This document shows, piece by piece, positions 1,627 through 24,663 of a DNA stretch of 59,568 nt. The first letter of the stretch is position 1; the number at the start of each line of letters is the position of its first letter. Below the pieces are notes generated by a model, which was given only the letters and a program-made list of their open reading frames with translations, searched no databases and had not been told where the DNA came from. The position numbers and the translations under genes were made by a program. Origin of the DNA: an uncultured Candidatus Saccharibacteria bacterium (GTDB lineage: Bacteria; Patescibacteriota; Minisyncoccia; Phycocordibacterales; UBA5272); assembly GCA_964406165.1 (NCBI GenBank), contig CAYOQQ010000003.1, forward strand, positions 1 to 59,568. The letters are read 5' to 3'.

Positions 1627-2736
1627 CTATGCAGCCTTCCTCTCACCGTAGGTAAGCGTCATTCGCTCCTCGTTTGCATCAAAGAGAGTGATAGAGAACT
1701 TGTAACTCTTTCCAAGAGTAAGAGTTGAGCGAAGCTTCGCTTCATCTCCGAAGTCTGATACATGAACAAGACCTGCTACACCTTCCTCGATAGAAACGAG
1801 TGCTCCGTGCTTGTTGAACTTAATCACAACACCCGCAACTTCATCTCCCTTCTTGTACTTCTTAGCAGCTTCCTTCCATGGGTTTTCCTTAAGAGCCTTA
1901 AGTGAAAGTGAAATCTTGTTATCCTTCACTTCAATAATTTTAGCGCGAACCTTATCTCCAACACGAGCATGTGCCTTAGTGTCTTCAACAAGACCCCAAT
2001 CGATCTCACTCTTGTGAACTAGACCTTCAACACCGTCAGTAAGTTTAATGAAGATACCGAACTCAACAACACCTGTAACTGTTCCTTCTACCTCATCACC
2101 AACAGAGTAGGTGCCAAGAGCAACCTCCTTTGTTTCTTTAGATGATCCACCGTCCTTTTCTGAGAAGATAAGTTTACCTTCCTTAGGAATAGCTGAGATA
2201 ATAGAAACAGAAATACGCTTACCAATAAGCTTCTTGAGCTCACGGAGAATCTTATCCTTATCACCATCCTCGATACGTGGGTACTTGTCTTCCTTGAGCT
2301 GGGATGCAGGGAGGAATCCTGACATACCTTGCCATTCGATAATAAGACCACCTTTGTTAGCGTCCTTAACAACGAGGTCCATAATACGCTTATCTTTGAT
2401 TGCTTGTTCAGCATCATTCCACATAAGCGCTTGACGAGCTTCCTTAAGAGAAAGTTCGACATACCCATTCTTGTTCTCACGAAGAACAATCTTCGCAGAA
2501 ATAGTATCACCAATATTGATACGCTTAATAACATCACGCGCATTCATGAACTCGATACCGTAAATGATACCTGTTCCTGCAACACCAAGGTCTACGTAGA
2601 GTGCTGATTTTTCAATCGCTACGATGATACCTTCTGTGATGTCTTCTTCCTTAAAAATAACTGCATCTACCGCGTATGGCGCGATAACTTGCTCTCCTTT
2701 TGTAACTGTTGTTGTCATAAAAATATAAATTCCCAC
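1627..2736 (-). CDS. rpsA: 30S ribosomal protein S1 (four S1 domains). The start may be the ATG at 2718.
   Basis: Repeated S1-domain signatures, e.g. GDEVEGTVTGVVEFGIFIKL..GLVHKSE and GDEVAGVVIKFNKHGALVSI..GLVHVSD. Confidence 0.85.
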   Translation of the reverse strand: MGIYIFMTTTVTKGEQVIAPYAVDAVIFKEEDITEGIIVAIEKSALYVDLGVAGTGIIYGIEFMNARDVIKRINIGDTISAKIVLRENKNGYVELSLKEARQALMWNDAEQAIKDKRIMDLVVKDANKGGLIIEWQGMSGFLPASQLKEDKYPRIEDGDKDKILRELKKLIGKRISVSIISAIPKEGKLIFSEKDGGSSKETKEVALGTYSVGDEVEGTVTGVVEFGIFIKLTDGVEGLVHKSEIDWGLVEDTKAHARVGDKVRAKIIEVKDNKISLSLKALKENPWKEAAKKYKKGDEVAGVVIKFNKHGALVSIEEGVAGLVHVSDFGDEAKLRSTLTLGKSYKFSITLFDANEERMTLTYGERKAA

Positions 2737-2742
2737 ACGAAG

Positions 2743-2835
2743 GTGGGAAAGCCACTTCGGTCTGGTTTCCCAGCTCCTGTTTAGTGTGGTTTATGGCCAT
2801 CTAGTCAAAACAGGGGCTGGGGGCTACGCCAGAAC
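2743..2835 (-). promoter_or_regulatory. GC-rich structured segment immediately upstream of rpsA (candidate leader or small RNA)
   Basis: On the minus strand CCCAGCCCCTGTTT pairs with AAACAGGAGCTGGG (13 of 14). There are also GGGAAA..TTTCCC and CCCAC..GTGGG hairpins with a UUCG loop. It shares a 22-nt block with the 5'UTR of the 60-aa ORF. Confidence 0.4.
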
Positions 2836-2923
2836 GGTATCTATTAATAGATAGGGTAATACTACAATAAAGAGGGGTAAAAGGCAAATAGTCTCAATAA
2901 TACTTTTTTGTGATTATTACAAT

Positions 2924-2960
2924 AAAAAAACCTCGACAGTCTTTCGATGTTGTCGAGGTG
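2924..2960 (-). terminator. Intrinsic terminator of the 60-aa ORF
   Basis: Minus strand reads CCTCGACA-loop-TGTCGAGG followed by a T7 run. Confidence 0.8.
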
Positions 2961-3006
2961 TATTGTCTATCTGGTGCACCTCTTACAGGGCTTATACCAA
3001 GATAGA

Positions 3007-3189
3007 TTATTCAGGCTTACCAGGTTCTTTAACTTCTTGTTGTTTCTCGGGTGGCTTGGTCCAATTTGGGTTGATTCGAAATGCTCCAGAGCGATTCATA
3101 TGACTTATCGCAACTCGATTTCTTTCTGCAATGATTTGCAACCTTCTTTTCTCATCTTCATCATCGGTACGTTTTGACGATGTGTTCAT
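3007..3189 (-). CDS. Small charged protein (60 aa), unknown function
   Basis: GGAGGG SD 5-6 nt before the ATG. Own TTGATA-N16-TATATT promoter and own terminator. Confidence 0.6.
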   Translation of the reverse strand: MNTSSKRTDDEDEKRRLQIIAERNRVAISHMNRSGAFRINPNWTKPPEKQQEVKEPGKPE

Positions 3190-3233
3190 ATTGATCCCTC
3201 CATGTAGTTAAAACAGGGGCTCCCTGATAGTTA

Positions 3234-3261
3234 AATATACATTATTTTTTTCGATTATCAA
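3234..3261 (-). promoter_or_regulatory. Sigma70-type promoter TTGATA-N16-TATATT for the 60-aa ORF
   Basis: The reverse complement of 3234-3261 gives the -35 and -10 hexamers with a 16-nt spacer. Confidence 0.6.
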
Positions 3262-3324
3262 ATTACTATTTAGTTATTATAAAATAATTATTAAGACTTG
3301 TTGGGTGTGTGGTTATAAAAGTTG

Positions 3325-3390
3325 ATGTCGAAATGTGCTCGTTAGCGTCCAGGACGTGACTTTGCTAAGTCAGACATCATTTTGCTCGGC
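3325..3390 (+). repeat. Palindromic unit / micro-ORF family, copy 1 (32-nt insert, in-frame TAG at codon 7)
   Basis: ATGTCGAAATGTGCTC + 32 nt + GACATCATTTTGCTCGGC. The termini match copies 2 and 3. Confidence 0.7.
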
Positions 3391-3400
3391 TATGTTATCT

Positions 3401-3448
3401 ATGTCGAAATGTGCTCATTTCGACATCATTTTGCTCGGCGCAAAATGA
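3401..3448 (+). repeat. Palindromic unit / micro-ORF family, copy 2 (minimal form; could encode MSKCAHFDIILLGAK)
   Basis: ATGTCGAAAT-GTGCTC-ATTTCGACAT is a 10-bp perfect stem. It is followed by the CATTTTGC-TCGGC-GCAAAATG hairpin. Confidence 0.7.
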
Positions 3449-3449
3449 G

Positions 3450-3478
3450 AAAACCGCGCGACTCACGTCGGGCGGTTT
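3450..3478. terminator. GC-rich hairpin shared by convergent transcripts (unit copies on +, ORF132 transcript on -)
   Basis: AAAACCGCGCG-ACTCACGT-CGGGCGGTTT. On the minus strand a T-rich tract follows it. Confidence 0.6.
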
Positions 3479-3479
3479 G

Positions 3480-3672
3480 GATGGTTCCCTTTTCCCCAAA
3501 GCTAAGCTTTGGTCGGGGCGAGGTGATCCTCTAGCGGTCCATCAGAAGTGACAGGGCCTTTCGCCTATCCTTCTTACCTCTACGCCGGATTGTCTGTCCG
3601 GCCTATTTACCTGTAATAACTCATGTGCAGGGTCTCCTGGGTTGTGGCATTGTTGTAAAGGCGGCTGACAGC
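3480..3672 (-). ncRNA. GC-rich structured 3' segment of the ORF132 transcript (unclassified)
   Basis: Several stable hairpins on the minus strand: GCCGGA-CAGACAA-TCCGGC, CCAAAGC-TTA-GCTTTGG and a GGC-GAAAG-GCC loop. No convincing ORF. It ends at the terminator at 3450-3478. Confidence 0.4.
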
Positions 3673-3810
3673 TTAGCGCTGCCAGGGCTTCGGTGCGGTG
3701 CGAGCAATAGCTCGCACCGTCTTGTGCCGCCCACGCAGAGTGTTCTGCGGGGGCTTGCACTTCGGGATAGGGTAGCGCGGAATGAATTCCGGCGGATCCC
3801 AAACAAACAT
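3673..3810 (-). CDS. Candidate 45-aa basic, Pro-rich micro-protein. An alternative 65-aa form starts at 3870 in a TAATG overlap with ORF132.
   Basis: AAAGGAGAGAC precedes the ATG at 3810. The longer frame begins with the ATG that overlaps the ORF132 stop codon. Confidence 0.3.
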   Translation of the reverse strand: MFVWDPPEFIPRYPIPKCKPPQNTLRGRHKTVRAIARTAPKPWQR

Positions 3811-3869
3811 GTCTCTCCTTTCGAATACCCTAAGAATGTCTAGGGGCCGAATGTGGAAGATTAGCAACA

Positions 3870-4268
3870 TTAGAATCTGACATTTACACGACGACGGTCC
3901 TTGTACTTGTCATTTCGGCCATGACGAGAGTATGACCGTTCTTCTTGGTGCACAAGTTTGGCACTGTAGAGATGTCCACGAAGGATGTACTCAGGGCAGT
4001 CTGCCGGCTTTCGAAAAGCTTCGCGCAAACCAGAGGACTGTTGGGTCCACTCATCGCGAGCACGAGGCTCGTCGATGCAGGTCTTGCGACGCGGCTTTGC
4101 CGGTTCGAGGACTTCTGGTGTCCACGCGATTTCTCCGTGGGTCTCCTTACGTACCTTGTAGAGGTCCGTGCCAGCCATGTTGTTCAAGGTTTCCTTGAGC
4201 GTGCTGGTGAGGGGGACATATCGTGCCGAGACACGAACCGGAATTCCGTTGAAACTTTGCAAACGCAT
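3870..4268 (-). CDS. GC-rich 132-aa protein, unknown function
   Basis: AAGGAGAAAAG precedes the ATG at 4268. Third-codon positions are G/C-biased, unlike neighbouring genes. The tracked ORF start at 4328 overlaps the promoter, so the start was trimmed. Confidence 0.65.
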   Translation of the reverse strand: MRLQSFNGIPVRVSARYVPLTSTLKETLNNMAGTDLYKVRKETHGEIAWTPEVLEPAKPRRKTCIDEPRARDEWTQQSSGLREAFRKPADCPEYILRGHLYSAKLVHQEERSYSRHGRNDKYKDRRRVNVRF

Positions 4269-4319
4269 CTTTTCTCCTTGGGTTAAATTGGTATTATGGG
4301 AAACAACTAAACTGTATAT

Positions 4320-4347
4320 ATTATACACGAAATATATATTTTGTCAA
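4320..4347 (-). promoter_or_regulatory. Near-consensus sigma70 promoter TTGACA-N16-TATAAT driving ORF132
   Basis: The reverse complement of 4320-4347 gives both consensus hexamers. Confidence 0.75.
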
Positions 4348-4454
4348 GTAATATTCTTTACAAACTTGACAAATAGTGTATTAAAATATGACCTTTGATA
4401 AGGGTTAAAATGCTTTATTTATATGTGTTTTCGAGGATTTATACAAAATAGTTT

Positions 4455-4598
4455 ATGTCGAAATTTGCTAGTTCTTATGTCTCTAGACGAGACATTGCGA
4501 AGCGAATTGAAGCTTTTTTGTTAAGGAACGCTTCGCTTACAAAAAACTTCAATTCGGACATCATTTTGCTCGGCGCAAAAAGAAAACCGCCATCATGA
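4455..4598 (+). repeat. Palindromic unit / micro-ORF family, copy 3 (long insert; open 47-codon frame MSKFASS...SDIILLGAKRKPPS)
   Basis: ATGTCGAAATTTGCTA ... GACATCATTTTGCTCGGCGCAAAAAG. The termini are shared with copies 1 and 2. TATACA lies 9 nt upstream of the ATG. Confidence 0.6.
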
Positions 4599-4623
4599 TT
4601 ATTCATCATTTTGGCGGTGTTTT
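4583..4623. terminator. Hairpin shared by unit copy 3 (+) and the 49-aa ORF (-)
   Basis: ACCGCCA..ATGAT-GAATA-ATCAT..TGGCGGT, with T-rich tracts on both sides. Confidence 0.65.
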
Positions 4624-4639
4624 ACTCCCTTTGCTGAGA

Positions 4640-4789
4640 TCAGTGGAGTTGCATCTCGGGAACTTCCACGGCATGGACGATGTCGTCCATGCCGATGCTG
4701 ATGCCTTGCTCGACGTTGCCGTCAAACATGGCATCAAGAACATTGTGCTCTTCGAGTGATACTGCGGCCTGGAACAGTGCTTCGTTCAC
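4640..4789 (-). CDS. Candidate 49-aa acidic micro-protein (GTG start)
   Basis: AGAAAGG lies 5 nt before the GTG. The frame is GC-rich, has its own TTGATA-N16-TATAAT promoter and is followed by a terminator. It is below the ORF-track size cut-off. Confidence 0.35.
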   Translation of the reverse strand: MNEALFQAAVSLEEHNVLDAMFDGNVEQGISIGMDDIVHAVEVPEMQLH

Positions 4790-4845
4790 GATTGCCTTTC
4801 TGCCCTAGTGGGCAATGATGCTTCTCAACATGAGGAGCAATGTAT

Positions 4846-4873
4846 ATTATACATTATTTATGTAATTTATCAA
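4846..4873 (-). promoter_or_regulatory. Sigma70-type promoter TTGATA-N16-TATAAT for the 49-aa ORF
   Basis: Read from the reverse complement of 4846-4873. Confidence 0.6.
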
Positions 4874-5006
4874 GTATATTTTAGGTTACTTCACTAATAC
4901 ATGTAGGTTCACGTAGTGTATTGCGTAAGTGATCTCTTAAGCGATATAAAGATATTGTCTATCGTCATAAACCTATAACTTTTTTCTTTATAACTTTTTT
5001 GTTAGA

Positions 5007-5651
5007 ATGGTCAGCATGATAATCACTCACTACGGACGACAGCATTTTAAATTACAAGTTGGCGATTTAACATTCGCAATCAATCCAGTTTCTAAGGAAG
5101 GAAAAGGGAAGTTAAGTAAATATGGGGCTGATGTGACTCTTGTCACTACGAATCATCCTGACTATAACGGAGTGGAGCAGACAGAAATGGGAAGTAAGAC
5201 ACCATTTGTTATTCGTGGGGCAGGGGAATATGAGGTGCAGAATATTTTTATTAAAGGATTTGCAACTGAAGTTACTCTTAAAGAGAACAAGAAAGAGAAG
5301 ACATACCAAAACACAAGTTATGTATTTGTGATTGATGGTATCCGTGTGACATTCTTAGGAGCACTTTCAGAGATGCTTAAGCCAGAGCATAAAGAAGTTA
5401 TCGATGAGACAGATGTGCTCTTCGTACCTGTAGGTGAAGATGGATTCTTACTTAATGCATATGATGCGTACAAACTTTCAGTTGCTCTTGAGCCAAAGCT
5501 TATTATTCCGATGGATTATAATGAGCAGTCACTTCCTATCTTTTTGAAAGAAGTAGGGAATGAAAAAGTAGACCCAGTAGAGAAGTTAACGATTAAGAAG
5601 AAGGATATTGAGGGGAAATTGGGTGAGGTTGTTCTCTTCCACGAGCTCTAA
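5007..5651 (+). CDS. MBL-fold metal-dependent hydrolase (UPF0173-like). The probable start is the ATG at 5016.
   Basis: N-terminal IITHYGRQHFKLQ..LTFAINP resembles the beta-lactamase-fold hydrolase family. TAGAAT at 5003-5008 lies 7 nt before the ATG at 5016. Confidence 0.6.
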   Translation: MVSMIITHYGRQHFKLQVGDLTFAINPVSKEGKGKLSKYGADVTLVTTNHPDYNGVEQTEMGSKTPFVIRGAGEYEVQNIFIKGFATEVTLKENKKEKTYQNTSYVFVIDGIRVTFLGALSEMLKPEHKEVIDETDVLFVPVGEDGFLLNAYDAYKLSVALEPKLIIPMDYNEQSLPIFLKEVGNEKVDPVEKLTIKKKDIEGKLGEVVLFHEL

Positions 5652-5831
5652 GAAAAAGACTGTAGTCAGTAGACTGTAGACCGTAGCTTTATATGCAAAT
5701 ACTGATACTTATAAAATAAGTACATGAATCTAAAACTATTGAGTTTGAGCTAAGGTGCAGTTTTTGTGCTGTTTGGCTACAGGCTAAGGTCTACAGTCTA
5801 CCTTGCTGTATACTATACATCAATTACATCG

Positions 5832-11277: not shown

Positions 11278-12105
11278 ATGCAAACATTTTTTACAAAAAA
11301 GAAGTTAAGTTCTTTTATCCTCGCAAGTGCTCTTCTTGCACTCTGTGTTGTGAGCACACATAGTGTATTAGCACAATCAGGAGAATCGATTGTGAAGTGT
11401 GGGAACGATGCCTCAACAAGTTCTGCTTGTACGATAGGTCAGATTGGTCCAGTTGTTAAAGGGGTAGTAGCACTCATTATTAGTATCGGTCTCCCACTCC
11501 TCTTCATCTTCGTGGCGTATCGTTTCGTAATGGCGTGGTTCTCACTGCAACAAGGAAATGCAAATGCGTATAAGGATGCACTGCAAAAAGCTGGGAATGC
11601 GATAGTTGGTTTTATTATTGTTACAGTACTAATCGGCGGTGGTCTTTACACTATCCTCTCATTCTTTGGGGTTAAGCCAGAAATTCTTCAGATATTAAAA
11701 TTATTCACCATGGGAGGAATAATCCCACATGCTTATGCCCAACAGACACTTCTTCCAAATTTTGGACCGGGGGACACCCTATATGAATTTGTTTTGAGTG
11801 CAGTACGTCTCGTCATGAAGTTCTTTGTATATCCAGCACTCATTGTTATTTGGGTGTGGACTGGATTTTCATTTGTTCTGGCGCAAGGGGCACCAGAAGC
11901 ACTCACCAAGGCTAAAAAATGGCTCATGTGGGCTTTTGTTACAACAATTGTAATTATGGTTCTTCAAGGATTTTTGTTTGCACTTAAAAATAGTGTTAAT
12001 AGGATTCTTTCTGATCCTGCGGCATCTGGTCAGGCATGTACTACAGCAGACGGTAGAAATGGTCAGATGGGGACTGATAATGTCTGCCATGCAGGTCGTG
12101 GCTAG
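11278..12105 (+). CDS. Secreted membrane protein with two tandem TrbC/VirB2-like (T4SS-pilin-like) domains
   Basis: Signal peptide, then two copies of the pattern TM helix - short charged loop - TM helix. Confidence 0.6.
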   Translation: MQTFFTKKKLSSFILASALLALCVVSTHSVLAQSGESIVKCGNDASTSSACTIGQIGPVVKGVVALIISIGLPLLFIFVAYRFVMAWFSLQQGNANAYKDALQKAGNAIVGFIIVTVLIGGGLYTILSFFGVKPEILQILKLFTMGGIIPHAYAQQTLLPNFGPGDTLYEFVLSAVRLVMKFFVYPALIVIWVWTGFSFVLAQGAPEALTKAKKWLMWAFVTTIVIMVLQGFLFALKNSVNRILSDPAASGQACTTADGRNGQMGTDNVCHAGRG

Positions 12106-12180
12106 AGTCGGTAACCGTAGGAGGTATAAGATTCTTGTTGTTTAATGATTCTCTGCTACACTTAGAACCATATATTACGT

Positions 12181-12960
12181 ATGAAAAAATTATTTATCCT
12201 TGCTGGTGTTTCATTTGCAACCGGGCTACTCTTTACATCAATAGCATCCGCCCAACTAACAGCAACTGGAGTGCAGCAAGGTATGGGTACATTCGCAGAT
12301 ATTATTAATACATTTAATACTACGATTGTAAAAGCCCTAGGTACTCTTTTCATGGCAGGAGGTGTGGTGGCGTTCTTTTTCGGTCTTGCGAATTTTATTT
12401 GGGGACTACGACAGGGAGATACGAATGTTATAAAAAATGGTAAGCAGTTTATGATCTGGTCTCTCGTTGCGCTCTTTGTGATGTTCTCTGTGTATGGAAT
12501 TATTAAGTTCGCTCAGAGTATGTTCCCAGGACTTGGTGATAACACTATTACTATTCCAGATGTACGATACCAAGGTGGGGGTGGTGCAGCAGGAGGAAAC
12601 ACTGGCGGTGGAGCTGCAGGTGGTGGAGCGGCAGGCGGAGGCGCCGGAGGAGGTGCAGCAGGCGGAGGAACATCAGGTGGTACGACAGGGGGAGGTACTA
12701 CAGGTGGTGGCACCGCAGGTGGCGGGACAGCACTTAAAGCTAATAGTGAGGTATGTACAGCAAATGACCAATGTCTAAGTAACTACTGTAATATGGGTCC
12801 ATACGGTGGCCAATGTGCAGTAAATACATCTACACTTAAAGCAAATGGAGAACAATGCACCTTACCAGAACAATGTGTTAGTGGCTATTGCCAGCCTACA
12901 CAAATGGGTTCAGTGTGTGCACCGCCTGCAGATTTAAATACTAACGGAGGTCCATCATAA
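12181..12960 (+). CDS. T4SS-pilin-like protein with a Gly-rich linker and two C-terminal Cys4 modules
   Basis: Signal peptide (..SIASAQ), two TM helices, a GGxxG-type tract of about 50 aa, then two LKAN-x-C-x5-C-x4-C-x8-9-C repeats. Confidence 0.65.
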   Translation: MKKLFILAGVSFATGLLFTSIASAQLTATGVQQGMGTFADIINTFNTTIVKALGTLFMAGGVVAFFFGLANFIWGLRQGDTNVIKNGKQFMIWSLVALFVMFSVYGIIKFAQSMFPGLGDNTITIPDVRYQGGGGAAGGNTGGGAAGGGAAGGGAGGGAAGGGTSGGTTGGGTTGGGTAGGGTALKANSEVCTANDQCLSNYCNMGPYGGQCAVNTSTLKANGEQCTLPEQCVSGYCQPTQMGSVCAPPADLNTNGGPS

Positions 12961-13002
12961 TAGGTCTTGAGGAATTTGTCACTACATCTGTTTTTGTAAA
13001 AC

Positions 13003-13031
13003 TTGACAAATTGTCTTTTTTCGTGTAGAAC
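13003..13031 (+). promoter_or_regulatory. Sigma70-type promoter TTGACA-N17-TAGAAC with a leader of about 170 nt
   Basis: Hexamers read directly. The downstream gene has an AAAGGAG SD. Confidence 0.55.
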
Positions 13032-13207
13032 GAGATAAGATTCCAAAAGTATCTTTTGGGAAAGTACAATAACAATACATAGAGGAATCGTGTACCTGTA
13101 GTCAAGGTGTCAGGGGAAACTCTGTAACCATGACCCAACCAACGTATCTTCTTTTGTGGTTAACAAGGGAAGATAGTATCAACCTAGTCAACTAAAGGAG
13201 AAGTTCG

Positions 13208-13843
13208 ATGAACGCAAACGTTAACCCTCAACCCGCAGGTCAACAGCCAAACGGCCAACAACAAAGTGAATCTTTGTTCAAACACCCTCTCTTCCCATAT
13301 GTCTTGGCATTCATTGTGTCAGTAATTAGCTATGCAGTTGGTAGCTTTATGGATATCAAAAAAATGGACTATGACAATACTCCTGCTGGTCTCATGCGAA
13401 TCGGAATAGAGAAGCAGAAGGGTGATATTCAGGAGGCGAAGGTGAAAGGGACTAAATCCCCGCAATCTGCAGCACCTGTCGAGCAGAAGCTTGCGCTTGT
13501 GCCAGTAGAAATGTTTTCATGCGACAAGTCTCCGGCTCAGGTCAATGAAGATCTGGAAAATGCGACACTCCAAGAACTGAATGAAGTTGGAGTTGGATAT
13601 GCTTTTGGCCCTGGGTGTGCTCGCATATCCCTTTCCAAGGATGTAACCCGTCGCCTGACTAGTTTCAGGGCAGACAGGTATGTCATTCGCCAGAAAGACA
13701 GTTCGTACTCTACGGGGTACTGGGGCTGTGGGACAATTGATGGTCGTAATGATTCACTGGCGGCGTGTCTCCAAGAGATTCGTCGACGTCCAGATCAGCC
13801 ACTCGAGGTGATCATTATCTCAGGTAATTTTACTCTCAATTAA
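13208..13843 (+). CDS. Hypothetical membrane-anchored protein (Q/N-rich N-terminus)
   Basis: AAAGGAGAAG SD. Visibly GC-richer than the flanking pilin genes. One TM helix. Confidence 0.55.
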   Translation: MNANVNPQPAGQQPNGQQQSESLFKHPLFPYVLAFIVSVISYAVGSFMDIKKMDYDNTPAGLMRIGIEKQKGDIQEAKVKGTKSPQSAAPVEQKLALVPVEMFSCDKSPAQVNEDLENATLQELNEVGVGYAFGPGCARISLSKDVTRRLTSFRADRYVIRQKDSSYSTGYWGCGTIDGRNDSLAACLQEIRRRPDQPLEVIIISGNFTLN

Positions 13844-13858
13844 AGAAGGAGGTAGTTT

Positions 13859-14143
13859 ATGGCAACAGAACCATCAGCTGGTGCATCCGCACCACAACCT
13901 GCTGCAGCGAAACCTGCAGCAGCTGCACCAAAGGGAATTAACTGGGGCTTGCCACTGTACGTTCTCGCGTTTTGCTTTGTCTTCTCAATCGGAATTGAAC
14001 TTCTGAGCGACAAGATGAGGGATTTCGACAATGTGATGAACCGTGTCTACAAGTACGGTATTCCATTGGCAGCATTTTCTCTTGCCTTTATGTTTGGTAA
14101 GAAGAAAATCGATGGTGGAGGTAAAGGTGGTGGAAGCCACTGA
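13859..14143 (+). CDS. Small membrane protein (Ala-rich N-terminus, Gly/Lys tail)
   Basis: AAGGAGG SD 6 nt before the ATG. Two hydrophobic helices. Confidence 0.5.
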   Translation: MATEPSAGASAPQPAAAKPAAAAPKGINWGLPLYVLAFCFVFSIGIELLSDKMRDFDNVMNRVYKYGIPLAAFSLAFMFGKKKIDGGGKGGGSH

Positions 14144-14444
14144 TTCCTGAGGTGAGTAAACACCGTAACATCTGTCTAGTCTGACATTAACTGACTTAGA
14201 AGGGGGCTTCCTCTTCGCAACACTGTCTTTCGCGGTGTCGCGAAAGGAAGTACCTCTTTTTCTATTTCTATATACAGTTGTTCTGGCTTTTTTATACCAG
14301 AATACGGTCTGGCTCCGGGTCTGAAGTCCATTTTATATACAGTTTTAACAAAAGTCATTATTTTTCTTATCCACAGGGTTTTTATTAATGTTCTAGTAAC
14401 TGAAATAAGATACCTATATACTATAAGGTATACAAAATAAATAT

Positions 14445-14831
14445 ATGAAAAAAGCATTAACCATCGGATCAGTTATCGTAAGTAGTGTATCTTTTGCAAT
14501 GGCACAAGTTGCAATTGGAGCACAAGCCCAGGGTACATCAGTAAACACATCAGCAATCGAGACCCTTATTGCAAAAGCAAATGGAATCGTTACAAGTATT
14601 GTCCCTCTTTTCGTAGGACTAGCACTTGCAGGATTCTTCTGGTTCCTAGTTAAGTTCGTTTGGAAAGGAGCATCAGACGCTACTGCTAAGAAAGAAGCTC
14701 TTTCTGGAATGGGGTATTCTGTTCTCGCTCTCTTCTTGATTGTAGGTATCTGGGGTATTATTGCGTTCGTTGCTAATATGTTTGGTATTGGTCTAGGAGG
14801 TACTGTTCCAATCCCAACAATCCCTAAGTAA
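14445..14831 (+). CDS. T4SS-pilin-like small protein, paralog 1
   Basis: Signal peptide MKKALTIGSVIVS.., FFWFLVKFVWKG, charged loop, LFLIVGIWGIIAF. Confidence 0.7.
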   Translation: MKKALTIGSVIVSSVSFAMAQVAIGAQAQGTSVNTSAIETLIAKANGIVTSIVPLFVGLALAGFFWFLVKFVWKGASDATAKKEALSGMGYSVLALFLIVGIWGIIAFVANMFGIGLGGTVPIPTIPK

Positions 14832-14854
14832 GATATTTACATTATAGTGTCTTG

Positions 14855-14887
14855 TAGATAGATACTCCACTTTGGAGTATCTATCTA
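14855..14887. terminator. 15-bp perfect hairpin between pilin paralogs 1 and 2 (attenuator or terminator)
   Basis: TAGATAGATACTCCA-CTT-TGGAGTATCTATCTA. No long T run follows. Confidence 0.5.
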
Positions 14888-14908
14888 TGTAATAAACAAC
14901 AATTACCT

Positions 14909-15292
14909 ATGAAAAAAGCATTAACCATTGGCTCAGTTATCGTAAGTACTGTTACTTTAGCGTTGGCACAACTTCCAATTGGAGTGCAAGCACAACCTAA
15001 TGCCGTTAACACATCAGCAATTGAAACATTAATTGCTAAGGCGACTAATATCGTTGCAAGTCTTGTCCCATTACTGATAGGTCTTGCTTTAGCGGGATTC
15101 TTCTGGTTCTTAGTTAAGTTCATTTGGAAAGGTGCATCAGATCCAAATGCAAAAAGAGAAGCTCTTTCTGGAATGGGGTACTCAATTCTGGCACTCTTTC
15201 TGATGGTGGGTATCTGGGGAATTATTGCATTTATTGCTAACGTGTTTGGAATTGGTCTTGGTGGGAAGATGCTTTTCCCTAGTCTTTTCTAG
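14909..15292 (+). CDS. T4SS-pilin-like small protein, paralog 2 (close duplicate of paralog 1)
   Basis: Aligns residue-for-residue with 14445..14831 over almost the full length. Confidence 0.7.
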   Translation: MKKALTIGSVIVSTVTLALAQLPIGVQAQPNAVNTSAIETLIAKATNIVASLVPLLIGLALAGFFWFLVKFIWKGASDPNAKREALSGMGYSILALFLMVGIWGIIAFIANVFGIGLGGKMLFPSLF

Positions 15293-15348
15293 GTGTAAGC
15301 TTTCATGTATCGTGAGTAATCTGTGAACAAATACCACACTAATTAACT

Positions 15349-15717
15349 ATGAAAAAAACATTGCTAACAATTTCAGTTATTGTTAGCAATTGTTTTTTTG
15401 CTTTTGCGGTGGTTAGCGGAGTTGTGTTTACCCCTGTTGAAAGTATCATAAATAAATCACGAGATCTCCTAGATAAGGTACTTCCACTTCTTATTGGCAT
15501 CGGCATGATTGGGTTTTTTTGGTACATGGTTGTCTTTGTGTGGTTATCAGTTGATAACCCTACAGAACGACAGAAAGCGAAAGTAGGGATGGCTTGGGCA
15601 CTTGGTGCAATGTTTCTGATGGTTGGTATATGGGGGATTATTGCTTTTATTTCAAGCACACTTGGTACCGGTCTCGGGGGTGAGATGCAGCCATTTAAAT
15701 TACCAGGTGAAAAGTAG
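15349..15717 (+). CDS. T4SS-pilin-like small protein, paralog 3
   Basis: Same architecture. Conserved GFFWY..VFVW and FLMVGIWGIIAF. Confidence 0.65.
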   Translation: MKKTLLTISVIVSNCFFAFAVVSGVVFTPVESIINKSRDLLDKVLPLLIGIGMIGFFWYMVVFVWLSVDNPTERQKAKVGMAWALGAMFLMVGIWGIIAFISSTLGTGLGGEMQPFKLPGEK

Positions 15718-23892: not shown

Positions 23893-24663
23893 TTAGTAGT
23901 CCTTCTTTCTAAATGCTCTTTGCGTTATAACAAGAAGAAGCAGTGCATAGGAAAGCGCATATAGTGTAGAGACTGCAAGGATACCAAATGATGGAATAAT
24001 TCCGTGAATGATGTCATTTCTGATGTTAAATTTCTCAAGGTTCGGAAGGATATAGTACACCGCTTCAGCTGCCACTTTAATCGCAGGGATTTTGGTTGTC
24101 ATGAACATATATCTAAAAATTCCCTCAGCATGCCCGATAATAAAAATCGAAACAGTTGAGACCGATGCAAGGATAGGGGAGGTGATACCAGAAAAGAGAA
24201 TAGAAATAAGAATAAGAAGAATCGCTTCAAGTGTACTCATAAACACTGAAGCAAGTATCGGCAAGAAAAAGATGCTACCACCTTGGATAAACAAAATACC
24301 GTACAAAACTGCTGTAGATAGAAGTGTTACAACAACAGTAGTGAGTGTAAGACCAAGACATTTACCGATGATAACTTCAGTCTGAGTGACAGGTTTTGGT
24401 AAAAGGAGATAAAATGTCTTTCGCTCTATCTCTTTATAGATAAGCATGCTTCCGATAAAAATAGCTACGAATATTTGAAGAGCGTAGATAGCAGTTGTAC
24501 TAAAGTCGATAATCATTCTAGTACTTTGTTCAAGCGAGATGGACGCGATGAATAAGGTAAAGACAATCATTGCAACAATAACGAAGAATGCAGAGAGAAG
24601 AATTCTGTCCCTAACTGTTTCCCTGAACGTATTTTTTGAAATGGCGAGAATATTGGTGAGCAT
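23893..24663 (-). CDS. ABC-2 type transporter permease
   Basis: Six predicted TM helices. Lies 12 nt downstream of the ATPase gene. Confidence 0.65.
   Translation of the reverse strand: MLTNILAISKNTFRETVRDRILLSAFFVIVAMIVFTLFIASISLEQSTRMIIDFSTTAIYALQIFVAIFIGSMLIYKEIERKTFYLLLPKPVTQTEVIIGKCLGLTLTTVVVTLLSTAVLYGILFIQGGSIFFLPILASVFMSTLEAILLILISILFSGITSPILASVSTVSIFIIGHAEGIFRYMFMTTKIPAIKVAAEAVYYILPNLEKFNIRNDIIHGIIPSFGILAVSTLYALSYALLLLVITQRAFRKKDY

Follow-up and report, generated by a model that had tools for sequence, protein, structure and literature searches.

A conserved structured RNA with a putative mini-ORF in an array of small orphan genes upstream of rpsA

The most conserved component of the block of small genes upstream of rpsA is a previously undescribed folded RNA of ~215 nt, which lies on the minus strand at 3441-3660 of the window (the whole 59,568-nt stretch of DNA that was analysed) and forms the structured 3' domain of the predicted transcript of a small orphan gene. 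Our best guess, made from the sequence, is that ribosome loading at a mini-ORF stabilises or remodels this functional 3'-end RNA. On this reading, the gap between rpsA and the divergent MBL-fold hydrolase gene would hold a short array of independent transcription units with leaders and Shine-Dalgarno (SD) sites, a minority mode in a genome where most core genes lack a leader and an SD. The block would be one local form of a fast-evolving accessory locus that is specific to one lineage, a family-level Paceibacteria/Nomurabacteria-type CPR clade, and is maintained there by vertical descent, and the REP-like hairpins that follow the terminators would be a separate, locus-enriched repeat. Our confidence in this explanation as a whole is evenly balanced.

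The rpsA-MBL gap spans 2719-5006 (2288 bp) and contains no gene recognisable by Pfam, NCBIfam, PHROG or PADLOC, which bears out the original prediction that no conventional gene lies here and that the proteins cannot be recognised; they are still orphans. The three predicted ORFs were confirmed, all on the minus strand, i.e., a 49-aa ORF with a GTG start (p49, 4640-4789), a 132-aa ORF (geneA, 3870-4268) and a 60-aa ORF (p60, 3007-3189). They define three strongly signalled small-gene units (1, 2 and 3, respectively) that run in the same direction as rpsA, with no convergent transcripts, and that are predicted to be transcribed. The GC content reaches 0.53-0.59 over 3400-3900, compared with ~0.40 elsewhere, and RNA folding of 3445-3870 gave z = -5.9 on the minus strand and z = -2.7 on the plus strand, in agreement with the earlier description of this sequence as GC-rich and hairpin-dense. 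The same prediction had placed the units in convergence with a GC-rich transcript, sharing a bidirectional hairpin in a twice-repeated module. This was a misreading, as all units are on the minus strand and no plus-strand promoter scores better than 9/12. Instead of being a separate opposed transcript, the GC-rich stretch is co-linear with the 132-aa ORF, ends at the unit 2 terminator and makes up the 3' portion of the transcript of that gene. The predicted G/C bias at the third codon positions of the 132-aa ORF is real (GC3 0.564, against 0.316 +/- 0.059 in 47 core ORFs of the window), and is accompanied by values of 0.696 in a 45-aa ORF (geneB) and 0.66 in p49; p60 is host-like (0.311). The picture of autonomous, strongly signalled units of atypical composition with a genuinely structured RNA is thus supported.

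The same signals recur in all three units, namely a canonical -35/-10 promoter, a 45-80-nt leader, an SD and an intrinsic terminator. The promoter sequences, which had been predicted as near-consensus, are exactly as claimed: TTGATA-N16-TATAAT with a TG before the -10 in unit 1 (4846-4873, minus strand), TTGACA-N16-TATAAT in unit 2 (4320-4347, minus; 12/12) and TTGATA-N16-TATATT in unit 3 (3234-3261, minus). Only 17 sites in 59.6 kb match at 10/12 or better; these three are among them, and that of unit 2 is the sole 12/12 match. The block around the unit 2 promoter (4317-4352) retains 87-94% identity in five relatives (L005, L009, L020, L021 and L035). The predicted terminators, each a hairpin plus U-tract on the minus strand, were found at 4577-4619, 3442-3478 (the 3' end of the RNA element) and 2924-2959 in units 1, 2 and 3. 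The SD claim stood for the 132-aa (AAGGAG) and 60-aa (GGAGG) ORFs, and AAAGGAG precedes the 45-aa ORF, but before the 49-aa ORF there is no more than a weak GAAAGG.

In the window, an SD is absent from 41 of 47 core ORFs, and 25 of 54 core genes are leaderless, with a -10 hexamer (mostly TATACT) that ends 4-14 nt ahead of the start codon. The prediction that core genes lack both SD and leader therefore holds for the most part, and fails on the leader for some of them, given that rpsA itself has a leader of ~150 nt. Nor is the leadered, SD-using grammar peculiar to the block, as about six other window genes share it. The promoter of rpsA (TTGTAGTATTAC, 2856-2867) and the structured leader of this gene, which has no SD (together 2719-2875, minus strand), are the sole part of the gap conserved in all relatives.

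The RNA element was recovered by nhmmer (E = 5e-36) and by a covariance model (56.5 bits, E = 1.5e-12), and matched no Rfam family, housekeeping or other. With the same two tools, 18 further loci were found (E from 1e-53 to 7e-4), on the rpsA strand and in the gap upstream of rpsA in every case where this neighbourhood is present; there is a single copy in the window, whereas L009 has a duplicated one. Read 5' to 3', the element consists of an unstructured CA-rich tract, a strong SD, the mini-ORF, helix P1, a multi-helix domain closed by P2, an A7-loop hairpin and the terminator, with at least seven helices in all. P1 (3584-3603, minus; GGCCGG-ACAGACAA-UCCGGC), with its conserved loop CAUACAA/CAGACAA, begins 3 nt past the mini-ORF stop, and the reading frame across it shows non-conservative changes, as compensatory RNA changes predict, so that P1 is taken to be RNA and not coding sequence. 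The central domain exists in at least three variants, combined mosaically with the geneA types; variant A, that of the window (3480-3573, minus), comprises a hairpin at 3545-3573 and the P2-closed domain at 3480-3543 (GAUGG...CCAUC).

P2 is a long-range helix that ends 3 nt before the terminator stem, with no overlap, and covaries among relatives (GAUUAGA/UCUAAUC, GAUCAGA/UCUGAUC, GAUCAAG/CUUGAUC). Over nine sequences, a 41-pair structure had 92% of its cells paired, against 81% in shuffles and 25-43% when the partners were slid, and 23 pairs changed on both sides, a number reached by 0 of 500 shuffles, in controls that use 9-17 related sequences and correct only partly for relatedness. The loops CAUACAA, UCGCAA and A7 are conserved. 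No partner for them was found, and the complement of CAUACAA shows no enrichment near start codons in the window.

The translation-initiation module (3607-3656, minus) is made up of the CA-rich tract (3639-3656), an AGGAG SD (3634-3638) and, downstream of geneB, a mini-ORF (3607-3624) that reads AUG-AGU-UAU-UAC-AGG-UAA in the window, i.e., five codons (MSYYR), which are predicted to be translated. Of the 17 full-length RNA copies, 15 have an SD followed by an AUG and an ORF no longer than 16 codons, compared with ~6% by chance, with an SD-AUG spacer of 5-10 nt and a mini-ORF that varies from 2 to 8 codons. In L037, L032 and probably L010 it is reduced to a start, one codon and a stop, which indicates that the conserved feature is ribosome loading and not the peptide. 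L009 has no mini-ORF, and there the stop codon of geneA itself occupies the equivalent position.

The proteins encoded upstream of the RNA are less constant companions. GeneA, a basic orphan protein with its AAGGAG at 4274-4279, has a family signature at the N-terminus (G-I-P-V-R-V-S..P-L-T-S..K-x-T-L-N..A-G), then a variable middle and a C-terminal H-G-R-N-D-K-Y-K-D-R, and is predicted to be largely disordered (AF2 pLDDT 50-57). Its family forms just 13-16 clusters among 1.8e9 and 5.8e9 proteins, with no phage, plasmid, Pfam, PDB or Rfam match. The micro-ORF that had been described as possibly coupled to the 132-aa ORF is instead the basic 45-aa geneB (3673-3810, minus) with an SD of its own (3815-3821); its conserved ...RGR..V...PWQR end and its SD are kept in 5/5 full copies, and its stop codon sits in the loop of a hairpin at 3665-3685. 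In L015, geneA has been cut down to a 17-codon remnant beside an intact RNA (48 bits), and elsewhere the RNA follows small membrane-protein ORFs (L037, L040) or a Cys-rich ORF (L032). The RNA is also dispensable in some lineages, since geneA occurs without it in L088 and in L005, whose S1 is the closest to that of the window (95% identical).

The geneA family is found upstream of rpsA in ~20 Paceibacteria-type genomes, in the same position and orientation; same-strand geneA-rpsA loci are L004, L005, L009, L014, L019-L021, L027, L030, L034, L035, L041, L086, L088 and L091. Since every locus was retrieved by way of rpsA or geneA, the apparently exclusive linkage to rpsA is partly an effect of sampling. 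The S1 proteins of this clade are 82-95% identical to that of the window, and geneA similarity does not track them (95% for S1 and 41% for geneA in L005), which, together with the mosaic RNA variants, fits exchange among lineages as well as fast vertical divergence. The GC3 of geneA is 0.45-0.82 in every relative, compared with a locus GC of 0.37-0.45, and as this is common to the whole family it is no mark of recent import. Syntenic homologs occur in many, though not all, relatives with a composition that is not core-like, and the reading frames are conserved across homologs. The block has no phage or plasmid match, scans of viral contigs gave chance matches only, and a search of 40 window ORFs turned up no recombinase, transposase or reverse transcriptase. 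A recent import was rejected on these grounds of synteny across the clade, family-wide GC3 and absence of phage, plasmid or nearby recombinase, and the earlier suggestion of a foreign or selfish module is not upheld.

Under the preferred explanation, efficient ribosome loading at the mini-ORF would be followed by termination up against P1. The bound ribosome may shield the 5' side of the structured 3' domain, like a 5' stabiliser, which would allow this domain to accumulate as a stable RNA, either as part of the mRNA or after processing from it. On termination, the ribosome may also open P1, coupling the RNA fold to translational capacity; the three conserved loops would be contact sites for a putative partner, and the upstream ORFs may be interchangeable passengers or partners of the RNA.

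Several known systems share parts of this layout. In Bacillus, ribosome binding or stalling near the 5' end of an RNA stabilises the RNA downstream (ermC leader, cryIIIA STAB-SD, aprE), and there too a ribosome-binding module lies 5' of an RNA segment and occupancy, not product, matters; here the module would act inside a transcript, ahead of a non-coding structured domain, and its function is putative. Leader-peptide attenuators (trpL/pheL; ermC/cat) have the same strong SD, tiny ORF with a stop abutting a hairpin, further helices and intrinsic terminator, but the present element is at the 3' end of a protein-coding transcript and not before a regulated gene, has no detectable antiterminator alternative, is followed by a gene with its own promoter and has a peptide that can shrink to one codon past the start. 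CpxQ, SroC and DapZ are small RNAs derived from 3' UTRs. Like the present RNA, they share their terminator with the gene upstream and have a structured 3' end that is conserved, with conserved single-stranded loops; the present RNA differs in its translated-looking mini-ORF and in being larger and more structured (~215 nt, at least seven helices). Phage morons are autonomous promoter-gene-terminator modules of deviant composition, and the units resemble them in their own sigma-70 promoters, intrinsic terminators and GC unlike that of the neighbours, but are chromosomal and syntenic between core genes, with no phage genes and the same family kept across the clade. Start-stop and minimal ORFs are known from ribosome profiling in E. 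coli (bioRxiv 10.1101/520783), with an SD and start followed almost at once by a stop, as in L032, L037 and L010; those described here are conserved phylogenetically as part of a structured RNA family. Finally, among SD-poor lineages, specialised SD-dependent translation is exemplified by rpsU/bS21 autoregulation in Bacteroidia, where the strong-SD genes are near the ribosome's mRNA-binding platform (PMC9976891, PMC7797042). Most genes here are also SD-free and a few have a very strong SD, but rpsU has none, and the SD bearers are orphans and the mini-ORF.

The palindromic unit that had been predicted to be repeated is borne out by identical 24-mers at 3422-3445 and 4557-4580 (none expected by chance). 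It corresponds to REP-like bipartite hairpins on the minus strand: copy C (4451-4583), with hairpin a (TCTTTTTGC..GCAAAA) and hairpin b split by an insert of ~80 nt; copy B (3401-3448), with TCATTTTGC-GCCGA-GCAAAATGA and ATGTCGAAAT-GAGCAC-ATTTCGACAT; and the degenerate, nested copy A (3323-3387), part of the 3323-3448 array. The 2.3-kb gap has three copies, in one orientation and at unit boundaries, against none in the other 57 kb. The repeat is not specific to the cassettes, given that one copy in L005 follows the terminator of the core gene rpsU. As in REP/BIME, these are imperfect palindromes of 25-45 nt in clusters of one to three, just past terminators, with arm covariation among copies; unlike REP/BIME, they are bipartite (two adjacent hairpins), all in one orientation and almost confined to the rpsA-MBL gap in the DNA available, with no RAYT gene seen.

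These hairpins enter into an unlikely rival, in which the gap would be a hotspot of integration or recombination, the units would be exchanged horizontally as moron-like cassettes, and the hairpins would be attC/dif-like recombination sites. Gap length ranges from 173 bp to 3965 bp, with varying content, among species with S1 80-95% identical; the homology between the window and L020 stops at the hairpin arrays, and co-oriented copies mark the unit boundaries. The atypical composition, the uncoupling of geneA from S1, the mosaic RNA variants, the duplicated RNA in L009, the short homologous metagenome contigs (0.7-2.6 kb) and an IS (rve) transposase adjoining geneA in L090 point the same way. 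Against exchange, neither the gaps nor the 40 window ORFs yielded an integrase, transposase or RAYT, phage, plasmid and viral comparisons gave nothing beyond chance, the high GC3 is family-wide, and throughout the clade the gene family and the RNA stay in the same place and on the same strand; the hairpin after rpsU in L005 and the units' own promoters, unlike those of integron cassettes, also argue against it. A toxin-antitoxin-like system, as first suggested, whether of type I or III or an acidic/basic type II pair of p49 and geneA, is very improbable: small orphan ORFs, an acidic 49-aa protein adjoining a basic 132-aa one and repeated hairpins with a structured RNA close by would suit it, but Pfam and PADLOC gave no toxin or antitoxin match, p49 and geneA belong to different units, each with its own promoter and terminator, and the partner ORF is not the same from one relative to the next (an unrelated 62-aa ORF in L005). 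There is, moreover, no antisense promoter, the hairpin repeats lie past the terminators instead of within a toxin transcript, and no ORF is hydrophobic in the manner of type I toxins.

It is decidedly doubtful that the proteins are the function, i.e., that geneA and geneB are small, basic, highly expressed and possibly ribosome- or RNA-associated products of a long-lived, GC-rich folded mRNA, with the RNA as an elaborate 3' UTR and terminator. The strong promoter and SD sites, the conserved termini of geneA, the conserved end and SD of geneB, the basic composition, the rpsA neighbourhood and the retention of geneA without the RNA in L005 and L088 favour this, yet the RNA outlives geneA in L015 and follows unrelated ORFs in L032, L037 and L040, the conservation or covariation of its loops and helices goes far past the needs of a terminator, and geneA evolves very fast and is predicted to be largely disordered, unlike ribosomal proteins. 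Also improbable is a leader-peptide attenuator of rpsA, in which the mini-ORF, helices and terminator would meter read-through from the strong upstream promoter. The element is co-oriented with and upstream of rpsA, its SD-led mini-ORF, abutting hairpin, helices and terminator follow the classical layout, and the terminator of L014, L015 and L019 ends right at the leader of rpsA, just 160-190 nt short of its start. The rpsA promoter and leader are nevertheless kept even in gaps of only 173-196 bp, further terminated units intervene in the window, L009, L020, L029, L040 and L086, and no conserved antiterminator was found, P2 being clear of the terminator stem.

The outer units are more restricted in distribution. 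The acidic p49 contains a perfect 12-bp palindrome (4669-4694), and its only counterpart among 5.8e9 proteins is that of the near-identical contig L001; beyond this contig, a homolog is present in L020 only, with 22 of 45 aligned residues identical and differences of 11/15/26 at the three codon positions. The unit 1 RNA fold has z = -7.2. The charged orphan p60 was found in the window and L001 only, and has no similarity to its positional counterpart in L086; within the unit 3 leader and p60 (3007-3226, minus), the leader segment 3200-3221 repeats 22 nt of the rpsA leader.

The gap between rpsA (1627-2718, minus strand) and the gene of an MBL-fold hydrolase (5007-5651, plus strand; PF13483, E = 1e-24) measures 2288 bp, and the minus-strand ORFs of 49 aa (p49, 4640-4789), 132 aa (geneA, 3870-4268) and 60 aa (p60, 3007-3189) that the original prediction had placed there were found at these positions, together with a 45-aa ORF (geneB, 3673-3810) in the same unit as geneA. 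The three promoters quoted for these units are exact, being among just 17 sites in the 59.6 kb of the window that match TTGACA-N16-18-TATAAT at 10 or more of 12 positions, and they include the sole 12/12 site; the three terminators, each a hairpin followed by a U-tract, are also present. A Shine-Dalgarno (SD) sequence had been expected for every unit, and is found for the 132-aa and 60-aa ORFs, as well as for the 45-aa ORF, but that of the 49-aa ORF is weak. The GC-rich stretch is real (0.53-0.59, against approximately 0.40 elsewhere), and its hairpin-dense sequence folds far better than shuffled sequence, with z = -5.9 on the minus strand and z = -2.7 on the plus strand. The bias in third codon positions holds too, with GC3 values of 0.564 for the 132-aa ORF, 0.696 for the 45-aa ORF and 0.66 for the 49-aa ORF, compared with 0.316 +/- 0.059 in 47 core ORFs; the GC3 of p60 (0.311) is host-like. 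In approximately 2 kb read as containing no gene, features can now be defined, along with two families of orphan proteins.

The block had also been credited with an expression grammar of its own, which stands as a trend, given that an SD is absent from 41 of the 47 core ORFs in the window. In 25 of 54 core ORFs, the start codon lies 4-14 nt 3' of the end of a -10 hexamer (TATACT in most cases), a distance that implies leaderless mRNAs, and the core grammar of the window is, by these sequence signals, leaderless. What does not stand is the uniqueness of the block, as some six other genes in the window share the leadered, SD-using grammar, which is a minority class not confined to this locus. 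A second SD-led, leadered set of genes was observed at 11278-15717 and at the starts 13208, 13859, 18678, 40440 and 42204. To it belong the genes for a PEP-CTERM protein and an HD-domain protein and, at 12-14 kb, a cluster of raised GC (0.45-0.46) whose ORFs are unannotatable, of low complexity or membrane-type, and the set may be another accessory region with the same minority grammar. S1 is the protein that handles leadered mRNAs, and the textbook -35/-10/SD genes of this leaderless, SD-free CPR genome cluster just upstream of the S1 gene, a clustering that makes the question of two translation-initiation modes in one genome directly testable. The Bacteroidia are another SD-poor lineage, in which a strong SD is kept for the specialized regulation of rpsU/bS21 (PMC9976891, PMC7797042), and the comparison is an analogy only, given that the rpsU found here has no SD.

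The convergent layout proposed for the block had to be abandoned, as a credible plus-strand promoter is absent and the GC-rich stretch is the 3' portion of the minus-strand transcript of the 132-aa ORF. The toxin-antitoxin reading is left without support, there being no good plus-strand promoter and no Pfam or PADLOC match; geneA, geneB, p49 and p60 have no NCBIfam or PHROG profile match either, and while the proteins are in this sense unrecognizable, as had been stated, homologs do exist for geneA, geneB and p49. In type I systems, the toxin is small and hydrophobic, whereas the ORFs of the block are charged and not hydrophobic, and the best plus-strand promoter-like site from which an antisense RNA might be transcribed in the block reaches merely 9/12. 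In type III (ToxIN-like) systems, tandem repeats lie upstream of the toxin, whereas the hairpin copies here number only one to three and follow terminators, and no match to ToxN, AbiQ or any other defense protein was obtained for the block.

Relatives of geneA numbered four in a word-indexed search of 5.8e9 proteins and 13 when a profile was run exhaustively against 1.8e9 representatives, a broader profile raised the number to 16, and an iterated HMM places the gene in approximately 19 loci; a metagenome scan with geneA returned only the contig already known. The family has a conserved N-terminus (GIPVRVS..PLTS..KxTLN..AG), a hypervariable middle and a C-terminal basic motif, HGRNDKYKDR, which is often followed by ..RAxGSGxTRAVNA, and in every contig showing context the gene sits in the MBL-rpsA gap and shares the strand of rpsA. 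As GC3 is high in all of the relatives (0.45-0.82), the unusual composition characterizes the family as a whole and is no trace of recent import. The structural check advised for this protein gave no fold match, with AlphaFold (two runs) reaching pLDDT values of 50 and 57 and only a short beta-hairpin and a helix, the best Foldseek hit against the PDB at E = 4.9, and no PDB sequence match at E <= 10. An AbrB/MazE (SpoVT) swapped-hairpin N-terminus, an idea taken from motif resemblance, was discarded at an hhalign probability of 0.3% against both MazE and AbrB. Among the loci and contigs compared with the window, which carry L numbers, geneA has decayed in one (L015:4740-4800) to a 17-codon remnant, MCIHRIANGLIISYDVL, ahead of an intact copy of the structured RNA that follows geneB in the window. 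In another (L090:64-981), an IS-type transposase (HTH plus rve) lies directly upstream of the geneA homolog, which shows that the rpsA-MBL hotspot also takes IS insertions.

The relatives identified through S1 (80 GTDB species representatives) are MAGs assigned to Paceibacterota, Nomurabacteria or Parcubacteria, and the order of genes around the gap is conserved, with gyrA, a small membrane protein and MBL on one side and rpsA and pth on the other. The gap itself ranges from 173 bp (L084, L023 and L043) to 3965 bp (L009) and in many cases contains GC-rich segments, and its only part kept in all relatives is the 170 nt nearest rpsA, which hold the promoter and leader of this gene; across the gaps, 61 consensus promoters are co-oriented with rpsA and 20 are opposite. 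No recombinase, transposase, reverse transcriptase or phage protein was found among the 40 window ORFs examined, and the rest of the window looks like an ordinary CPR chromosome; among the called genes of related contigs, the rve gene of L090 is the one exception to the absence of recombinases. Given the clade-wide synteny, the family-wide composition, and the absence of mobility genes and of phage or plasmid relatives, the evidence favors a native, lineage-specific, fast-evolving accessory locus rather than the recently acquired, foreign or selfish module first suggested.

The locus might instead be made up of mobile cassettes exchanged between lineages, as the content of the gap is variable, the RNA variants are mosaic and the divergence of geneA is uncoupled from that of S1, such that in L005 the S1 protein is 95% identical and geneA only 41%. 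This exchange is nevertheless held to be unlikely, given that no DNA or protein match to phage or plasmid was found. Scans of viral contigs with the geneA profile, the RNA motifs, the hairpin repeat and the promoter returned nothing or chance matches, among which L093 proved to be the SD-ATG of a phage ORF and L095 a lone hairpin in an unrelated context. Integron cassettes need intI and attI, and no recombinase domain is present in the flanking genes or the 40 window ORFs; they are also promoterless, whereas every unit here has its own promoter, and the repeat of the block differs in architecture from attC (R''/L''-L'/R' arms, GTTRRRY core) and is without the GTTRRRY core. The block resembles a phage moron in its autonomous promoter-ORF-terminator units and deviant composition, but it does not lie between (pro)phage genes, its neighbors being pth, rpsA, the MBL hydrolase gene and gyrA, and there is no phage match.

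Among the smaller ORFs of this locus, geneB has its own SD, AAAGGAG, and both gene and SD are conserved in L002, L004, L090 and L091, always with the end ...PWQR-stop, and with a remnant in L020; geneB is probably translated, but its region is also strongly folded, with the stop codon inside a conserved hairpin loop. Homologs of p49 occur in the near-identical contig L001 and, at the same position, in L020, where differences by codon position (11/15/26) favor coding. The RNA of unit 1, which carries p49, has a folding z of -7.2, and at 4669-4694 the ORF contains a perfect 12-bp palindrome, CGGCATGGACGA/TCGTCCATGCCG, which is preserved in L020 by paired non-synonymous changes (M to T together with H to R), implying selection on a nucleic-acid hairpin within the coding region. 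The orphan p60 is found only in the window and L001 and has no similarity to its positional counterpart in L086. Given its host-like composition and a copy of the rpsA leader in its own (22 nt of 2797-2818 repeated at 3200-3221 with 91% identity), the p60 unit appears to be young and locally born, and the repeated stretch suggests that the unit originated when the rpsA leader was partly duplicated or received an insertion.

The most persistent feature of the rpsA-MBL locus is the RNA element at 3441-3660 (minus strand), 3' of geneB, which was found by iterated nhmmer (profile E = 5e-36) and has a single copy in the window. A covariance model built from nine relatives places it at 19 loci with E values from 5e-53 to 7e-4, namely the window, L002, L004, L007, L009 (twice), L010, L014, L015, L016, L019, L020, L021, L029, L032, L037, L040, L086, L090 and L091. 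All of the copies are on the rpsA strand and, wherever context is present, in the gap upstream of rpsA, a linkage that is partly a sampling effect, as the loci were collected via rpsA or geneA. At the position of geneA, the element is preceded by small membrane-protein ORFs in L037 and L040 and by a Cys-rich ORF in L032. Given that it occurs without an intact geneA in L015, L032, L037 and L040, and that L005 and L088 keep geneA and lack the element, the RNA is a separable module. Its two copies in L009 (2559-2707 and 3628-3788) lie in one 3.96-kb gap with four co-oriented promoters, and look like a local unit duplication.

The fold comprises a helix, P1, which comes after a mini-ORF and has the conserved loop CAUACAA, a long-range helix, P2 (GAUUAGA/UCUAAUC, with the variants GAUCAGA/UCUGAUC and GAUCAAG/CUUGAUC), the helices P2a and P2b, the A7-loop hairpin P3 and the terminator, all of which covary; the central domain has at least three variants, with variant A in the window, L009, L020 and L090. 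Under a 41-pair model of nine variant-B sequences, 92% of the cells are in standard pairs, compared with 81% in column shuffles and 25-43% when the partners are slid, and 23 pairs are changed on both sides, a number reached by 0 of 500 shuffles. The structure is well supported by this covariation among 9-17 related sequences. A target was sought for the CAUACAA loop, but the complement of this loop is not enriched near start codons in the window.

No Rfam family, riboswitches and HEARO/omega RNA included, matches the RNA region in the window or its relatives. The whole window at the gathering threshold gave tRNA-Trp only, the region 2600-5100 at E <= 5 gave just spurious miRNA and snoRNA matches outside the element, and in L002, L004, L088, L090 and L091 the element remained without a match at E <= 1, while ARAGORN reported no tmRNA; a housekeeping RNA (RNase P, tmRNA, SRP or 6S) was rejected on this absence of Rfam and ARAGORN matches in the window and relatives. 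No relevant description of a CPR RNA or leader at rpsA emerged from a literature search, and, to our knowledge, experimentally characterized non-coding RNAs are almost absent from this phylum. The element is a covariation-supported candidate for a new structured RNA family.

On its 5' side, the element has, in order, an unstructured CA-rich tract, a strong SD and an AUG, which opens a mini-ORF of five codons in the window (MSYYR, 3607-3624) and of 2-8 codons in most relatives, mostly ending in Arg-stop, with the stop 3 nt 5' of P1. An SD, an AUG and a short ORF (2-16 codons) can be read from the sequences of 15 of the 17 full-length copies, compared with approximately 6% by chance. The spacer between SD and AUG measures 5-10 nt, and L032, L037 and probably L010 have only a start, one codon and a stop; start-stop ORFs are known from E. 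coli (bioRxiv 10.1101/520783). The mini-ORF is missing from L009, where the stop codon of geneA holds the equivalent position. Given the variable spacer and length and the start-stop forms, it would be ribosome loading and prompt termination at P1 that are conserved, and not a peptide. A frame running across P1 ('PDIQSG') was rejected as coding, as it changes non-conservatively, in the manner that compensatory RNA substitutions predict, and P1 is thus not coding. A second SD-led micro-ORF, 'MSFALSLYR' at 24414, is antisense within an ABC-type membrane gene and was set aside as coincidence.

With modest confidence, the mini-ORF may be viewed as a module for ribosome loading, by which the structured 3' domain is protected or remodeled; this domain would accumulate as a functional RNA whose conserved loops would contact a putative partner; 5' stabilizers and 3'-UTR sRNAs are precedents with which it can be compared. 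A short ORF with its own ribosome-binding site, as read in 15 of 17 copies, would also suit a leader-peptide transcription attenuator for rpsA. The attenuator is weakened by the conserved promoter that rpsA has of its own, even though this gene follows the element in many relatives, by the terminated units which separate the two in the window and at five other loci, and by the lack of an apparent antiterminator, as there is no mutually exclusive terminator/antiterminator pairing and P2 and the terminator are adjacent and non-overlapping in the consensus structures. As a putative ribosome-loading RNA, the element has an unusual design, in which the conserved mini-ORF heads a 3'-terminal structured domain; it matches none of the families considered, and can best be regarded as a new RNA family, in which known design elements are joined in an unusual position. 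That it represents a new class of ribosome-engaging regulatory RNA is quite improbable. If this were true, the SD/AUG would be a 'docking' module that captures 30S subunits or S1 and presents the structured domain in a cell with leaderless, SD-free core mRNAs, and the RNA would tune S1/ribosome homeostasis from a fixed site upstream of rpsA, possibly as an RNP with the basic, fast-evolving geneA and geneB products.

The palindromic repeat of the block is bipartite, with hairpin a, TCATTTTGC-N5-GCAAAATGA, followed by hairpin b, ATGTCGAAAT-nAGCAn-ATTTCGACAT, and its copies are found immediately past the terminators that end units 1 and 2. Related copies are confined to the closest relatives (L004, L005, L020 and L088), in one orientation and with arms that covary between copies, and over the 59.6 kb of this genome and at most 13 kb per relative nearly all of them are in the rpsA-MBL gap. 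The sole copy outside the gap (L005:12340-12412) comes after the terminator of rpsU (bS21), immediately upstream of a ybeY-like gene. The repeat shares with REP/BIME elements the hallmark of a short extragenic imperfect palindrome, often past terminators, and is classed as REP-like, with a recombination spot, a DNA or RNA hairpin and an operator as its candidate roles; REP/BIME elements can number tens to hundreds across a genome, often together with a RAYT transposase. It differs from TIGR-Tas arrays (PMC12045711) in that its arms are conserved and self-complementary, and not variable spacers. Plus-strand peptides of the form 'MSK..FDIILL..K' in the repeat were dismissed as a by-product of the palindrome (ATGTCGAAA / TTTCGACAT), type-1 copies being without an ATG.

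The rpsA leader (2719-2875, minus strand), which is kept in all relatives, has an extended -10, TTGTAGTATTAC, a palindrome, TCTATTAATAGA, and a long-range helix, CGUUCUGG/CCAGACCG, with the compensatory variants UUUGG/CCAAA (L021 and L035) and CUAG/CUAG (L014). In its 3' part, a variable hairpin is followed by a GC hairpin and a U-tract abutting the AUG, and an SD is absent. The leader has no Rfam match and is a candidate motif for the autoregulation of S1 in CPR bacteria.

Finally, metagenome assemblies tend to break at the rpsA-MBL gap, which is hypervariable. Four very short metagenome contigs of 0.7-2.6 kb (L001, L002, L003 and L004) bear the locus, and L001, which corresponds to 2715-5064, ends a few bases from the rpsA start codon on one side and within the first 60 nt of the MBL gene on the other, which is consistent with strain-level heterogeneity breaking the assemblies at this locus. 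A (CTACACG)x6 tandem repeat occupies positions 1-45, just upstream of pth, and a long imperfect inverted repeat of CTGTAG/CTACAG-type units lies at 5655-5810, past the MBL stop codon.
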